The notes beneath the pieces were generated by a model, which saw nothing but the letters and a program-made list of their open reading frames with translations, was not told where the DNA came from and ran no database searches. The position numbers were made by a program, and so were the translations under genes. A DNA stretch of 64,000 nt, taken from NCBI GenBank assembly GCA_963555825.3, contig CAUVXB020000002.1, forward strand, positions 576,001 through 640,000, in the 5' to 3' direction. Of this stretch, positions 3,736 to 10,753 are shown one piece after another (position 1 is the first letter of the stretch; each line of letters starts with the position of its first letter). This DNA comes from Alphaproteobacteria bacterium (lineage in GTDB: Bacteria; Pseudomonadota; Alphaproteobacteria; JAAXGF01).

Positions 3736-4782
3736 TGAGAACGGCAGAGCAATAATCCCCCACTGAAGCGGCCGGTCGATCCGGCTGCGGCGGACCAAAA
3801 TGGGACCGCGTATAGCCTTCTGTCAGGGTTGCTCTGACTGGAAGGCGGGGGGGGGGGGGGGATGTATCGGGTGGAGTTGTACGCACGGGTTCGGCGGGCG
3901 TGTCATGTCGAGGGGATGAGCACCCGCGAGGCCTCGCGGGTGTTTGGTGTAGACCGCAAGACGGTCCGTAAGATGCTGTCGTTCTCGGTGCCGCCAGGGT
4001 ATCGCCGAAGCGCGCCGCCGAGGCGGCCAAAGCTGGGTCCGTTCACGGGAATCATCGATCGGATCTTGGAAGACGATCGGACCAGCCACCGCAAGCAACG
4101 GCACACTGCGAAGCGCATCTTCGACCGCCTCCGGGACGAGTACGGTTTCACGGGCGGCTACACCATCGTGAAGGACTACGTTCGTGAGCAGGGGCTTCGG
4201 TCGCGTGAGGTGTTCGTGCCACTCTCCCATTCCCCCGGTCACGCCCAGGCGGACTTCGGCGAAGCGATGGCGGTGATCGGCGGCGCGTTACGGAAGATCC
4301 ACTTCCTTGCCTTCGACCTTCCCCACAGTGATGGTTGCTTTGTTGCGGCCTATCCGGCGGAGACGACCGAAGCATTCTGCGATGGCCACAACGCGGCGTT
4401 TGCCTTCTTCGGCGGCGTCCCCCGATCCATCCTGTACGACAACACCAAGCTGGCGGTTGCCCGGATCCTGGGCGATGGGAAGCGGCAGCGAACGCGCGTC
4501 TTCACGGAGCTTCAGTCCCACTATCTGTTCGAGGACAGGTTCGGCCGGCCGGGCAAGGGCAACGACAAGGGCAAGGTCGAGGGACTGGTCGGCTTCATCC
4601 GGCGGAACTTCCTGGTCCCCGTCCCGCGTGCCGAGAGCTTCGCGGCCCTCAACGATGCTCTCGCCGAACAGTGCCGCCGGCGCCAGGCGGCGCGGCTGCG
4701 GGGCCACAAGATGCTATGAGGCTGAAGGACGCAGCCTCAAGCTCCTTCGATTATTTCAACCTCGATCAGAAGGAGCGACACG

Positions 4783-5916
4783 ATGGCACAGTTTCCGGTA
4801 TCGACCTCCAATGAACACGCTATTTATGCGGCACTGGAGTTGAGCAAGAACAGCTGGCTTTTGGCGATCCAGGCTCCGGGGCGGGGCAATCCGAGCTTGC
4901 ATCCGATCAAGGGCGGCGACGCTGAAGGACTGATGGCCAAGCTGGACGCGGCGCGGGACCGGGTGGTCAAGGTGACGGGTCGAACGCCGACGATAACGCT
5001 GTGCTACGAGGCCGGCTACGACGGCTTCTGGTTGGCGCGGTTCCTCGAGCAGCGCGGCATCGAGTGTCTGGTCATGGAGCCGGCCAGCTTGCGGGTCAAC
5101 CGCCGGGCGCGGCGGGTGAAGACCGACCGCATCGATGTCGAGAATATTCTTCATACGCTGATCGCCTGGTGCCGCGGCGAGCGTCATGTCTGCTCCATGG
5201 TGGTGATTCCGAGCGTCGCGGAGGAGGACCTTCGCCGCTCTCATCGGGAACGTGACCGATTGGTCCGCGAGCGAACCGCCCACATCAACCGGATCAAGGG
5301 TCTGCTATTCGGTCAGGGCATTCGCGGCATCAATGTCAAGGCGCGCTACAAGACCTTGACACCGGCGGCGCTGGTCACCGGAGACGGCCGACCCCTGCCG
5401 GACCGTCTCGGCCGCGAGATCGCGCGGGAGATCGCGAGACTGGCCCAGGTCCAAGCGCAGATCGTCGAGGTCGAGCGTGAGCGTGATCAAGCGCCGACAC
5501 CGTGTGTGGCCACGGAAAGCAAGCGTCACCAGCTGCTGCGCTTAAAGGGCCTCGGCCCGGCCTTATCCACGACGCTCGCACGGGAAGTCTATTATCGCCA
5601 GTTCGCCAATCGCCGACAGGTGGCAAGCTATATCGGGATCACGCCCAGTGCCTATGACAGCGGCGACGGGCGCCGCAGCCAAGGCATCTCCAAGGCGGGC
5701 AATCGGCTGGCACGGGTTGCCATGATCGAAGCCGCATGGCTTTGGGTCCGCCATCAACCCGATAGCGCTCTGACCCAGTGGTTCCATGACCGCACCCAAG
5801 GTCAGAAGGGGCGCATCAGGCGCGTCATGATCGTCGCCCTGGCCCGCAAACTGGCGATCGCGCTTTGGCGGTATCTGGAAACCGGGCTGATCCCGGTGGG
5901 TGCTGTCGTCAAATAG
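4783..5916 (+). CDS. IS110-family recombinase/transposase
   Basis: ALELSK, CYEAG, KTDRID, YIGITPSAYDSG, ISKAGN, ALARKL motifs. Confidence 0.95.
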   Translation: MAQFPVSTSNEHAIYAALELSKNSWLLAIQAPGRGNPSLHPIKGGDAEGLMAKLDAARDRVVKVTGRTPTITLCYEAGYDGFWLARFLEQRGIECLVMEPASLRVNRRARRVKTDRIDVENILHTLIAWCRGERHVCSMVVIPSVAEEDLRRSHRERDRLVRERTAHINRIKGLLFGQGIRGINVKARYKTLTPAALVTGDGRPLPDRLGREIAREIARLAQVQAQIVEVERERDQAPTPCVATESKRHQLLRLKGLGPALSTTLAREVYYRQFANRRQVASYIGITPSAYDSGDGRRSQGISKAGNRLARVAMIEAAWLWVRHQPDSALTQWFHDRTQGQKGRIRRVMIVALARKLAIALWRYLETGLIPVGAVVK

Positions 5917-5949
5917 GACTGCGGATCAGCTCAGCGTTCTAACGGGCTT

Positions 5950-6200
5950 CATTCCCCGATGGGAACGCTTGTTGGCAGGTTGGATGTGTGACTGCATGTC
6001 TCCTTGGCGAAGGTGCCGTCCACAAGATTAGTCCCATCCCCGTCCTGTGATGGTCCATGTATACAGCATTGTGGCAAGCCGGATCGGAGCTGCCGGATAT
6101 AAGGTGATGCGATCACTCGCACGAAACACGGAACTCATCGCAAGACCCGCCCTGGATACAAAGCCATAACCAATGGAAGAGACGATCATGTGGCGTAGAT
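5950..6200 (+). ncRNA. Putative bridge/seek RNA of the IS1111-group element
   Basis: Target guides GTCTCCTTG (5998-6006) and CCACAAG (6020-6026), donor guides AGCAT (6065-6069) and ATATAAG (6097-6103), each pair separated by a hairpin; RNA ends approximate. Confidence 0.8.
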
Positions 6201-6881
6201 TAAATCCACCTTGACAGCAAACGCCTCATATAAGGAGACCATCGGCGAGCGTCTCGAGCGGGATCGTCAAGTTCTCTTGCCATTGCCGCCTGCTCCCTAT
6301 GATGCCTGCGATAAGCGCCCTGGACGGGCGAGTTCGCTGTCGCTGGTGCGTTACCGCAGCAACGACTATTCCGTGCCCGTGGCCTACGGCCACCGTGAGG
6401 TGCTCATCCGGGGCTACGTCGATGAGGTGGTGATCAGCTGCGGGGCCGAGGTGATCGCCCGGCACCGCCGGTCCTACGACAGCGAGGACCTGATCTTCGA
6501 CCCGCTGCATTACCTGCCCTTGATCGAGCAGAAGATCGGCGCCCTCGACCAGGCCGCGCCATTGGCGGGCTGGGACCTGCCCGAGGCCTTCATCACTCTG
6601 CGGCGGCTCCTCGAAGCTCGTATGGGCAAGGCAGGCAAGCGCGAGTACGTCCAGGTGCTCCGTCTACTGGAGACCTTCCGGCTCGAGGAGGTCGAGGGTG
6701 CGGTCGGCGACGCCCTGCGGCTCGGCGCAATCGGCTTTGATGCGGTGAAGCACCTGGTACTGTGCCGCATCGAGCGGCGGCCGCCCAGGCTCAACCTCGA
6801 CGTCTATCCGTATCTGCCGCGCGCCCGGGTCGCGATGACGTCCGCCAAGTCGTACATGAGCCTGCTGTCGGGGCTCGGCGC

Positions 6882-7646
6882 ATGACCGACACACCGCAAG
6901 TGCTGCTCGCCCACCACCTCAAGACGCTGAAGCTGCCGACCTTCCTGCGCGAGTACGACAAGATCGCCCGGCAGTGCGCCTCGGAAGGCGTCGATCACGT
7001 CCGCTACCTGTTGAGACTCGCCGAGCTCGAGCTGATCGACCGCGAGCGCCGCATGGTCGAGCGGCGCATCAAGGCGGCGCGCTTCCCCGTGGTCAAGAGC
7101 CTCGACAGCTTCGACTTCAAGGTCATCCCCTCGCTCAACAAGGCGCTGGTCCTGGAGCTGGCCCGCTGCGAGTACATCGAGCGCCGCGAGAACCTCATCG
7201 CGCTCGGCAACAGTGGGACCGGCAAGACCCACATCGCCCTCGGTCTCGGCCTGGCGGCCTGCCAGAAGGGCCTCTCGGTCGGCTTCATCACCGCCGCCGC
7301 GCTGGTCCACGAACTCATCGAGGCCCGCGATGACAAGCAGCTGCTGAGGTTCCAGAAGAAGCTCGCCACCTACAAGCTTCTGATCGTCGACGAACTCGGC
7401 TTCGTGCCGCTGTCGAAGACCGGCGCCGAGCTGTTGTTCGAGGTGTTCAGCCAACGCTACGAGCGGGGCTCGACCCTGGTCACCACCAATCTGCCCTTCG
7501 ACGAATGGACCGAGGTGTTCGGCTCCGAGCGCCTCACCGGCGCGCTCCTCGATCGCCTCACCCACCACGTCAACATCCTCGAGATGAACGGTGACAGCTA
7601 CAGGCTCAACCAGAGCCGCAGGCGTCAAACCCCGACTGCTAACTGA
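6882..7646 (+). CDS. istB: IS21 helper ATPase IstB
   Basis: Walker A GNSGTGKT, Walker [16 protein letters not shown]; ATGA overlap with istA. Confidence 0.95.
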   Translation: MTDTPQVLLAHHLKTLKLPTFLREYDKIARQCASEGVDHVRYLLRLAELELIDRERRMVERRIKAARFPVVKSLDSFDFKVIPSLNKALVLELARCEYIERRENLIALGNSGTGKTHIALGLGLAACQKGLSVGFITAAALVHELIEARDDKQLLRFQKKLATYKLLIVDELGFVPLSKTGAELLFEVFSQRYERGSTLVTTNLPFDEWTEVFGSERLTGALLDRLTHHVNILEMNGDSYRLNQSRRRQTPTAN

Positions 7647-7837
7647 ACCGACCACCCAGCCCACGCTTGACCCCGTGGGCCCACAGGTCCCTCCCGCGCG
7701 CGCCGCCGCGTCAGCCTGTTGAGGGCACGCCGCGTCGCGCGCGGGGCCCTCCCGTGGACTACGGGGACAAGCCCGCAGCCGCCAAGCGGTCCCTTCTTAC
7801 ACCGCCGAGGTGGTCCCTTTTTGCTCCGCCATTGACA

Positions 7838-10753
7838 ACGGTGACGGTCACGCTGAGCCCAAGCGGCGCGGGTGCCTCGAGTCTGAGCACGGACCCGCAG
7901 ACCCTGACGTTCACCGCCTTGAGCTGGAACACGGCGGAAACAGTGACCGTCTCGGCCGCAAACGACTCCGACGCCAACGACGAGACAGGCGCAATCGGGC
8001 ACACAGGGTCCGGAGCCGACTACGCAGGGCTACACAGCGATCTCGACGTGACCATCCTCGACAACACCGGAGGACCGATCGTCACCGCAGTAACGATCTC
8101 GCCAACACCCCCCGGAGCGAGCGCGGTCGCCAGGAGCCCGAGGACAAAGGACGAACTCGCGGCGCTGCCCGCAAACGCAGTGCACGGACCCGGAGCAAGG
8201 CTCGTGTTCACCGTGACGTTCAGCAGGGCAGTCACCGTGGTACCTGATCCGAACACCGGAGCAAAACCTGAGCTGAAGCTCGACATCTTCGGGCGCACAC
8301 ACACGGCACGCTACAGCGGGGGGTCGGGCACGACACAGCTCAGGTTCGGATGGACGGCGTCGCAGGGCGACTACGATCCAGACGGACCGAGCATAGACGA
8401 ACTCACAGAGAACGGAGCGAAGATCGAGGACGGAACCGGACGGGAAGCGAACCTCACAGGAGCGAAGCAAAGCAACCTTCAAGCGCATCGAGTGCGAGGC
8501 GGCTTCTACAACATGCGGATCAGCGCAGAGAGCACCAGCGTGCGCGAGGGCGACGACCTCGAGATCAGAGTAACCAGAAGCGGGGAGCACGACGAGACAG
8601 CGCACGCGTCGGTGAGGGTGACCGACAGCGGACTGCCCCAAGAGAGCAGGACCAGCGTGCTCTCGTTCCCGTTCAACTTTGACAGCGAGAACGCACGTCA
8701 AGCGGTATCGACAAATCGCATCACGGTGCCTGGAGACGGTGTGATGAACAACGACCGCACGATCACGCTCGAGATTACCTACGCGGATTTCGGAAACCAA
8801 TGGTACGAGATCGGACCGCCCGCTTCGGCGAGCGTCGCGGTCACGGAGAACAACCTCGGAGAGAACGCACCGGTGCTGTCGGTAGGACCGGCAGATGCGC
8901 ACGAGGTGCCGGGGGCAACGCTCAATTTCGAGGTGAGTCTCAACAAGACACCGGACGAAATGGTCACCGTCGATTACACGACGCGCGACGGAACGGCAAC
9001 CGTGGCCGACGGTGATTACGTCGAGAGGAGCGGAACGCTGACGTTCGAGGGGACCGAGACAGAGCACACGGTGGCCGTGGAAGTGCTTCCTGATGCGCAC
9101 GACGAGGGGAGGGAAACCGTATGGCTCGTGCTGTCGAACCCGCAAGGCGCCGTGATCGGGCGGGGCGAGAACTACGGCCATATCCACAATGACGGACCAA
9201 TCCCGAAGGCGTGGATCGCGCGCTTCGGGCGCACGGTGGCCGAACAGGTGCTGGAGGCGGTCGAGGGCCGGATGCGCGCGGCGCCGGCGCCCGGCGCCGA
9301 GGTCGCGCTCGCCGGCGAGCGGATCGGGGCGCAGTCCCCGGATCGGGGTCCGGGGCAAGCCGAGCCCGGCAGCGACGCGGAACGGGAGGCCCGGCGGGAA
9401 GAGGAGGCCCGGCGCGATACGCAGCGCCTCGCCGGCTGGCTGCAGGGCGAGACCGACCCGGAGGAGGCGCAGCGTCTCAGGTCCCGCGCGGTGACGCCGC
9501 GCGACCTGCTGACCGGCTCGTCTTTCGCGCTGACCGCGGAGACGGCCGGCAAGGACCTGGTCTCGCTCTGGGGCCGGGGCGCGGTGACGCGCTTCGACGG
9601 GCGCGAGGGCGATCTCATGCTGGACGGCGAGGTCGTGACCGGCATGCTCGGCGCCGACTGGACGGGCGGGCGCTGGACCGCCGGTCTGATCGTCTCCCAC
9701 AGCACCGCCGAGGGCGGGTATTCCGGGGCGCCGGACGCCGGGGACGCCGGCAGCGGCGGCAAGGTCGAGGCGACCCTGACCGGCCTCTTCCCCTGGGCGC
9801 GCCATGCGCTCTCGGAGCGGCTGGAGGCCTGGGGCGCGGCCGGCTACGGCCAGGGCGAGCTGACGGTGACGCCGAAGGCGCCGGGGACCGGCGGGGACGG
9901 CCCGGCGATCCACGCCGACCTCGACCTCCGGATGGCGGCGGTGGGCTTGCGCGGCGTGCTGCTGGATCCCGAATCGGGGTCCGGCTTCCAGCTGACCGGC
10001 AAGACCGACGCGATGGTCGTGCAGACGGCGTCGGGGCGGGGGCGCAGCGCCGACGGCGGCAGGCTCGAACCGGCCCGGGCGACGGTGACCCGGCTGCGTC
10101 TCGGGCTGGAGGCGGTGCGGCCGGTCGGGCTCGGCGGCGGGGCGACCCTGACGCCGCGCCTGGAGATCGGGGTGCGCCACGACGGCGGCGACGCCGAGAC
10201 CGGCGTCGGCCTCGACCTCGGCGGCGGGCTTGCGCTCAGCGACCCGAAGCGCGGCCTCCAGGCCGAGCTCAGCGGGCGCGGGCTGCTCGCCCACCAGTCG
10301 ACGGGCTTCCGCGACCTCGGCTTCTCGGGTTCGCTCGCCTGGGAAGGCAAGTCCGGCTCGGACCGGGGGGCGAAGCTGAGGCTGACCCAGACGGTCGGCG
10401 GGTCGTCCGCGGGCGGCGCCGATGCGCTCCTGTCGCGCACCACGCTGGAAGGGCTGGCGGCGAACGACAACGGCGAGGGCGGCAACGACGAGCTGAAGAG
10501 CCGGCGGCTGGAGCTGAAGTTCGGCTACGGCCTGTCGGCCTTCGGCGACCGTTTCACCTGGACGCCGGAGGTTGGCGTCGGCCTGTCGGACACCGGGCGC
10601 GACTACAGCCTCAGCTGGCGCCTGGTGCGCGGCGGGTCCGGCAGCGACGGCGGCGCGCTCGAACTCTCCTTCGAGGCGCGCCGGCGCGAGAGCGCCAACG
10701 ACGACACGGACCCGGTGCACGAGGTCGGTCTCCGTCTGACGGCGCGCTTCTGA
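7838..10753 (+). pseudogene. 5'-truncated large surface protein: Ig-like/Calx-beta passenger plus autotransporter-type beta-barrel
   Basis: Calx-beta motif VTVDYTTRDGTAT-DGDY-SGTLTFEGTETEHTVAVEV-D-HDEGRET; barrel ending in C-terminal F; N-terminus removed by IS21. Confidence 0.85.

Follow-up and report, generated by a model that had tools for sequence, protein, structure and literature searches.

The closest described systems to the locus analysed here are IS621 and the insertion sequences (IS) of the IS1111 group. IS621 encodes a DEDD-type recombinase with a Ser-Gly C-terminal domain (PMC11208160, PMC11208158, PDB 8wt6), together with one RNA that has a target-binding and a donor-binding loop, each of which reads opposite strands on its left and right sides, with both sides including a short core (PMC11208160). 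The available parts of PMC11187229 describe a long non-coding region downstream of the gene for the transposase in the IS1111-group elements ISEc11, ISKpn4/ISPst6 and ISPa11, and subterminal repeats with asymmetric 7- and 3-base extensions in elements of this group that use a seekRNA. According to the same source, the seekRNA contains two short segments, one corresponding to each target strand, that share bases at the junction and of which the complement of the top strand is on the 5' side, and close relatives within the group have been retargeted naturally via changes in the guide segments only. All of these features appear to recur in the element reported here, which lies on the forward strand of a 64,000-nucleotide stretch of alphaproteobacterial DNA (contig CAUVXB020000002.1, positions 576,001 to 640,000), called the window below.

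The element is a 1524-bp IS110-family insertion of IS1111 architecture at window positions 4711-6234 (+ strand), and it very probably carries a bridge (seek) RNA that targets a 12-base site in the istA gene of an IS21. We propose that the right end of the element encodes an RNA of ~160 bases, at about 5982-6142, that contains two internal loops. In the first of these, the target loop, the 3' side would pair with the target's bottom strand (left flank plus core), and the second loop would read the abutted ends of the excised element in like manner. A recombinase held by this RNA would then exchange strands at a short common core, probably AG within AAG. The target loop would specify a 12-base site that occurs once in each copy of an IS21 present in ~78 copies, within istA at codon 283. 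Hence the element would nest in IS21 in one orientation, splitting istA, and would also enter a few other sites that match 11 or 12 of the 12 bases.

The element and its insertion sites

The bounds of the inserted element (4711-6234, +) are given by 11 full copies in the genome, which have exactly these ends and are 99.87-100% identical, and by a form that skips exactly 1524 bases. This pre-insertion form joins position 4707 to 6232 with three ambiguous bases and was seen in the contigs of all four sequencing runs (4/4); the bounds can equally be written as 4709-6232 when the core is placed on the left. An earlier reading of the window from its sequence alone (the original prediction) had deduced such a pre-insertion target, and the skipped form, along with 69 empty exact copies of the 12-mer in the genome, indicates that this target is real. 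Judged from its sequence, 4711-6234 is an active-looking IS110-family element.

The non-coding ends consist of 72 bases on the left (4711-4782) and 318 bases on the right (5917-6234), that is, the short left end and the long non-coding region 3' of the transposase gene that are a trait of the IS1111 group. A 7-bp subterminal inverted repeat on the left (4716-4722, +) is the reverse complement of its 7-bp partner on the right (6223-6229, +) and is kept in relatives. The left repeat has a 5-base outer extension, or 7 bases including the AG core, and the right repeat is followed by a 3-base extension and then the AG core. With this core counted on the left, the terminal extensions are 7 (left) and 3 (right) bases, as laid down for IS1111-group elements (PMC11187229).

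The transposase/recombinase gene (4783-5916, +) is intact and encodes a protein of 377 amino acids (aa), identified by Pfam, NCBIfam, relatives in the PDB and conserved residues. Both Pfam domains, DEDD_Tnp_IS110 (PF01548) and Transposase_20 (PF02371), scored above their cut-offs. The NCBIfam model NF033542, 'IS110 family RNA-guided transposase', was matched at 204.4 bits against a cut-off of 140, over protein residues 15-368 and profile positions 1-341 of 343, in agreement with the original prediction of an intact element of this RNA-guided family. By sequence, the only relatives with a solved structure were the transposases of ISCro4 and IS621, which align with the C-terminal 150 residues. 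At 377 aa the protein exceeds the 330-350 aa criterion for IS1111-family transposases; the element appears IS1111-like in architecture, and we treat the group placement of its protein as a candidate.

Relatives of the element were collected by scanning one genome per species, which yielded 405 confirmed cases, and the best 80 of the 405, with 49-89% protein identity, were used. Among 62 distinct relatives of the recombinase, residues E19, E76, D118, S293 and G294 were invariant, and D115 was present in 61 of the 62. The IS110 family usually carries Asp as its first catalytic acid. E19 may be the counterpart of this residue, judging by the position of the motif rather than by a structural alignment; as the first acidic residue it is Glu in 62/62 distinct relatives, i.e., in the whole clade.

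The element interrupts an IS21 copy. To its left (3736-4710, +) lie one IS21 end, defined by the ~78 genomic copies, and the 5' part of istA, whose truncated open reading frame (ORF) starts at 3862 and contains the Pfam rve domain. To its right (6235-7837, +) lie the 3' part of istA (to 6885), istB (6762-7646) and the other IS21 end, with matches to Pfam Mu-transpos_C_2 and IstB_IS21 and to NCBIfam NF038214. An rve core and a Mu-type C-terminal domain in IstA, followed by an IstB ATPase, all in a multicopy unit with defined ends, identify the host as IS21. The insertion cuts IstA after codon 283 of 499, which separates the catalytic core from the C-terminal domain (the length of 499 aa for intact IstA was taken from an empty IS21 copy). 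Over the whole genome, the IS21 unit measures 2569 bp and is found in ~78 copies with ~99.9% identity.

This IS21 expansion amounts to roughly 3% of the 6.04-Mb genome. In the window's IS21, the stretch from the left end to the start of istA is 8 bases longer than in the reference copy that was used. Upstream of this IS21 is an IS1595-family (ISXO2-like) transposase gene (2149-2811), and a 1028-aa ORF (7667-10753) begins directly after it.

A blastn search of the element against the genome returned 17 rows, comprising 11 full-length copies, 8 of which were 100% identical, and 6 partial ones. Seven of the full copies occupy the IS21 site, all in one orientation, and four are located elsewhere. 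The 12-mer was matched at 12/12 positions in eight copies (the seven in IS21 and one other) and at 11/12 in three. Copies at unrelated sites had been named beforehand as the observation that would speak against the original prediction; all 11 of the full copies in the genome sat at a site with 11 or 12 of the 12 bases, and none was found at unrelated sequence.

All 69 unoccupied exact 12-mers in the genome are within IS21 copies. The sites outside IS21 are in or next to a resolvase-domain gene, another IS110-family element, an IS4/IS5-type element and an intergenic stretch. In three of these four sites, the 5' side of the target loop, taken as its reverse complement, extends the match two bases rightward, and it does not do so in IS21. 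Thus, IS21 is the commonest good target, not the best, a perfect or the exclusive one. The predicted placement of the site in a multicopy IS was borne out by the seven full copies and the 69 empty 12-mers in IS21, with the correction that IS21 provides neither the only match nor the best one.

The four loci outside IS21 are L001, L005, L009 and L006 (in the window's genome, G000, at C2:3454581, 1503417, 3497095 and 798605). Three of these insertions are in or border mobile-element DNA, and the IS4/IS5-type element found there has 30 copies; the fourth site is intergenic and near a caspase-domain gene. At the IS4/IS5-type site the repeat stops 0-4 bases from the junction, so the original left flank is uncertain.

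Beyond this genome, contigs from other runs have loose ends at window positions 4701-4734 and 6199-6239 that join the ends of the element to flanks foreign to the genome, so the element is mobile among related strains. One right-end relative in those contigs runs on into a different target. In a plasmid collection, 55 records matched parts of the element at 60-90% identity and carried the annotation IS110-family transposase; none of them covered 80% of the element. Genomes of the same family held only diverged or fragmentary relatives.

Among the 74 left IS21 parts that reach the site, 65 were empty and 9 carried the left end of the element; among the right parts, 69 were empty and 9 carried the right-end tip. 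Two of the occupied IS21 sites hold remnants (G000 C1:1251300-1251660 and C1:1730301-1730600). In both, the same foreign sequence, the end of a transposase-like protein gene, abuts the truncated right end of the element; one breakpoint is inside the target loop, and the other leaves just the last seven bases of the element.

A history in which the element used its own guide to enter IS21 once or a few times, and in which most of the nine resident copies then spread with IS21 through IstA/IstB acting in trans, has several points in its favour. IS21 is clearly mobile, as its copy number and near identity indicate, and the interrupted copies retain both IS21 ends. Moreover, single-nucleotide polymorphisms (SNPs) in IS21 are too few for independent entry and hitch-hiking to be told apart: the left part has only 6 variable sites in 60 ungapped copies, with 6 of the 7 occupied ones sharing the commonest haplotype, and a haplotype filter on the right part, where most copies differ by one base in length, kept just 7 copies and was uninformative. 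On the other hand, the element itself selects this sequence, as is shown by its four insertions into the motif outside IS21, further contexts are present in the loose ends from the other runs, and the 65-69 empty IS21 sites are perfect 12/12 targets. We regard spread of most copies by hitch-hiking as possible but unlikely. It is compatible with guidance by an RNA and matters only for how many independent events there were; under this history, the phrase 'programmed against IS21' in the original prediction would overstate repeated targeting. One entry into IS21 at the least, and four at other sites, are certain, and the number of independent IS21 entries lies between one and nine.

A diverged IS21 variant was also observed, with 5 right parts, all empty, and a single changed base in the 12-base site, at its first position. 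Its loci are G000 C2:3585426, C2:1705103, C1:1500915 and C1:1633397 (and C2:1500061), with four clean copies, all empty, and many of the 122 sites that vary among 7 copies distinguish it from the main type.

The empty site has a single AAG trinucleotide, and each junction of the insert has one (4708-4710 and 6232-6234, +), in line with the three-base ambiguity of the joint; crossover thus falls within AAG. The original prediction had taken AAG itself as the core. In the relatives, however, the first of the three bases is often not the same at the left junction and in the right-end tip, and only AG is common to both, so the core is probably AG rather than AAG. In one clade (L069-L083, L092), the last base of the right-end tip is A, against G in the donor loop and at the left junction, and L119 and L122 have AA at the left junction where sister copies have AG. 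Such A-for-G junctions look like footprints of recombination over a mismatched core.

Target loop and covariation with the flanks

The original prediction pointed to four guide motifs in the right non-coding end, and these can be read directly in the sequence at the positions it gave. The 9-mer at 5998-6006 is the reverse complement of nine target bases across the junction, and the 7-mer at 6020-6026 is identical to the last seven bases of the left flank (4704-4710). Further downstream, the first five bases of the element (4711-4715) recur as their reverse complement in the 5-mer at 6065-6069, and the 7-mer at 6097-6103 is identical to the element's last seven (6228-6234). A small hairpin lies inside each pair of motifs (6006-6017 and 6073-6094). 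We estimated chance levels from 5000 dinucleotide shuffles of 5917-6215, leaving order and spacing free and counting any match at least as long. The target-right match was reached in 103 shuffles, the target-left match in 502, and both together in 10; the donor-left match was reached in 375, and all four motifs together in 1. The motifs in one sequence are therefore modestly improbable and suggestive only, and the weight of the argument comes from the other copies and from the relatives.

The target-binding stem-loop (5982-6039, +) is delimited by covariation in its stem and by loop sides that covary with each element's own flanks. It consists of an outer stem (5982-5993/6030-6039) and an inner hairpin (6006-6017), separated by two guide sides. 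The 5' side (5994-6005, running into 6006) complements the top strand over the core and right flank, and the 3' side (6018-6029) is identical to the top strand over the left flank and core, which are found at 6020-6026. When the relatives were aligned 3' of the stop codon, conserved stems were seen around two variable stretches, aligning with 5994-6006 and 6018-6026. In relative after relative, these two stretches match the element's own right flank, as its complement, and its own left flank, in the same sense.

To quantify this, the ends of each element were located by conserved end motifs, and the longest match of each target loop was scored against the flanks of every element. Both flanks were readable in 62 of 81 elements, which represent 46 distinct targets. 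The mean summed longest match to an element's own flanks was 12.54, compared with 9.80 +/- 0.21 after permutation, and 0 of 10,000 permutations reached 12.54. This result holds although many of the 'other' targets come from close kin, and the window's element ranked first of 46 for its guide-flank match. The nearest relatives target a palindromic repeat, as ISPa11 does (PMC11187229). Between the window's element and L055, with 83% protein identity, three guide-base differences mirror three differences between the two 12-base targets. The two target segments of the RNA match opposite strands of the target, overlap at the core and shift with the target among relatives, as those of a bridge/seek RNA do.

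These data also bear on whether the protein alone might read the site, with the complementarity in the non-coding end being a coincidence or a by-product of shared ancestry. The shuffle results, by which the motifs in the window are only modestly improbable (both target matches in 10 of 5000), would leave room for this. Covariation between guides and flanks over 46 distinct targets, unmatched in any of the permutations, would not, and neither would the three mirrored changes between elements whose proteins are 83% identical. In addition, the RNA was required in the experiments on family members described in the available parts of PMC11187229 and PMC11208160. We consider recognition by the protein alone to be extremely improbable.

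Donor loop, secondary structure and expression

The donor-binding stem-loop (6046-6142, +) was recognized by an outer stem, which is seen in folds and in paired changes, and by guides that follow the ends of the element. Within it, the outer stem (6049-6056/6130-6139) encloses the 5-mer (6065-6069), an inner hairpin (6073-6094), the 7-mer (6097-6103) and a small hairpin (6108-6121). Both loops share one layout, in which a guide is followed by a hairpin that opens with GG and closes with CC and then by a second guide.

In near relatives, the second loop and the element ends are both constant. More distant relatives have two further classes of right-end tip, and the 7-mer of the loop changes along with them. 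Counted by eye over 47 usable rows, without a permutation control, the 7-mer matched the right-end tip exactly in 34 and was one base off in 13; 11 of these 13 differ at the last base, where the tip has A and the loop has G. In the variant tip classes, the 7-mer was exact in 4/4 rows of one and 3/4 rows of the other. By the same kind of count, exact complementarity between the 5-mer and the left end was seen in three classes with compensating changes (12, 8 and 1 rows), and the 5-mer is one base off in several others. The second loop accordingly matches the abutted element ends and changes with them, as expected of a bridge/seek RNA.

Conserved secondary structure with compensating changes, another trait of such RNAs, is evident in the right end. 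RNAalifold recovered the target loop's outer stem, including compensating changes in it. When a five-helix structure was drawn by hand on a MAFFT alignment of 22 sequences, 84.4% of the cells were paired, compared with 34-39% when the pairing partners were slid. We built a covariance model from this structure and searched 58 of the 81 sources with it, leaving out 23 further loci from genomes that were already represented. The model found the RNA on the strand of the gene and downstream of it in 56 of the 58 sources. In its alignment, 86.3% of cells were paired versus 31-46% when slid, a figure that leans towards the structure because the alignment is fitted to it, and 24 of the 34 pairs change on both sides. 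For the target loop's outer stem, the alignment shows two-sided changes in 8 of 10 pairs and pairing in 94.5% of cells. All 8 pairs of the long-range donor outer stem change on both sides, and 14 of 25 representatives form this stem in their minimum-energy fold.

The two target guides, the right-end donor guide and the stems all show strong covariation, which supports the bispecific guide RNA of the original prediction. A further hairpin (5934-5968, +), which directly follows the stop codon and lies upstream of the core of the guide RNA, appears in the centroid fold and shows apparent compensating changes in the alignments. In the window's genome, the covariance model gave 15 matches, of which 11 correspond to the full copies, 2 to partial copies and 2 to distant relatives of the guide RNA. 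The last two (G000 C2:2829430-2829613 and C1:1793929-1794123, at 46 and 39 bits) indicate that more than one lineage of such elements is present in the genome.

Concerning expression, a perfect -35 consensus hexamer (6211-6216, +) faces outward 18 bases from the right-end tip and is kept in near relatives aligned without it as an anchor. This hexamer could form a promoter only with sequence past the tip, for example with the left end of the element in a circle. At the circle junction, the best candidate for a -10 element at 17-base spacing is weak, matching 3 of 6 positions. Junctions of circles are described as creating a promoter in both families (PMC11187229, in its available parts). RNA-library contigs from three runs of one study cover 5597-6239. 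In one run, contigs cover the non-coding end but not 4777-5366, and in another the depth over 5603-6192 exceeds that over the gene; since contig depth and gaps cannot rank the parts of a gene, we drew nothing from the depth of the RNA runs.

Several observations weigh against a two-loop guide RNA made from this locus. The RNA-library contigs reveal neither ends nor strand and may derive from DNA in the libraries, so they give no direct sign of a discrete RNA. A sigma-70 promoter scan of 4600-6400, which represents the linear element, returned 0 sites. The abutted right-left junction of a circle had 0 matches in the genome, with up to 2 mismatches allowed, and did not occur as a contig joint, although contigs drop rare forms. 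The minimum-energy fold of 5917-6234 on its own was no better than that of shuffles (z +0.81) and did not display the loops, and a search for Rfam families found none, its 4 matches all having E > 6 and falling far below the gathering scores. In the model alignment, whose fit favours the structure, the donor outer stem is the weakest part, with only 62-71% of cells paired. Finally, the donor-right 5-mer was reached in 4322 of the 5000 shuffles, which is chance level, and the three bases beside it in the window's loop are not fully complementary to the core. The match to the circle junction claimed in the original prediction is hence upheld for the 7-mer, which follows the right tip, and not for the 5-mer by itself.

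The last of these points raises a more specific alternative, namely that the guide function is confined to the first loop, as in a short seekRNA, and that the protein reads the element ends via the inverted repeats, with the matches of the second loop being incidental or structural. An 82-nt seekRNA was enough for movement of ISEc11, and the available parts of that report describe matches to the target only (PMC11187229). Besides the chance-level 5-mer, the fact that the donor loop hardly varies in near relatives, and is hence less tested there, also fits such a scheme. It is harder to reconcile with a 7-mer that changes with the right-end tip in two further classes (exact in 4/4 and 3/4 rows), with a 5-mer that changes with the left end in three complementary classes, and with the identical layout of the two loops. 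Furthermore, both loops have been reported for IS1111-group elements by Durrant et al. (PMC11208160, in its available parts). We consider guidance by the first loop alone improbable and favour an RNA in which both loops act as guides.

Relation to known systems

The element is clearly a natural example of the kind of system described in 2024 and not a new kind of system. Current understanding is not overturned by it: most IS1111-group elements have already been predicted to have such RNAs, and members that target mobile elements are known. What the locus offers is a complete natural set in one genome, with an intact recombinase gene, a two-loop guide, donor ends, occupied sites and 69 empty targets. 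The 46 targets of the relatives show which RNA positions are free and which are fixed, which is useful for the less-studied bridge RNAs of IS1111 type and for choosing orthologues, and the three mirrored guide and target changes provide a case of natural retargeting.

The locus also presents a guided IS that lives inside the transposase gene of another IS. One might speculate that it is a parasite of a parasite, in which a member of the Glu-first recombinase clade has its guide set on istA of an IS21 that has bloomed, and disables copy after copy (9 of ~74-78), thereby finding a harmless landing place and acting as a brake on IS21 expansion. We hold this idea to be rather doubtful; if it were true, it would be a case of guide-RNA-mediated conflict between insertion sequences.

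When the element is set beside IS621, similarity between the proteins is confined to the C-terminal 150 residues (E about 7e-8). The RNA of IS621 is in the left end with the left guide first, whereas here it would be in the right end with the order reversed, and the IS621 core is CT (PMC11208160, in its available parts) versus probably AG here. The differences from the IS1111 group, as far as it is described in the available parts of PMC11187229, lie in size and target: proteins there have 330-350 aa versus 377 aa here, the repeats are usually 11-13 bp versus 7 bp, and the target here is inside the transposase gene of another IS. Literature searches turned up no IS110/IS1111 element reported to target istA, although the supplementary ISfinder target lists of PMC11208160 and PMC11187229 may hold a close relative.

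Several known elements share the habit of nesting. IS1383 inserts into the inverted repeats of IS1384, and IS4321/IS5075 insert into the terminal repeats of Tn21-family transposons. ISKpn4/ISPst6 target attC sites (PMC11187229, in its available parts). Like the element described here, all of these have a preferred site in another mobile element, in which they nest in one orientation. Their targets, however, are terminal repeats or recombination sites, whereas the site used here is in the coding sequence of istA, at codon 283.

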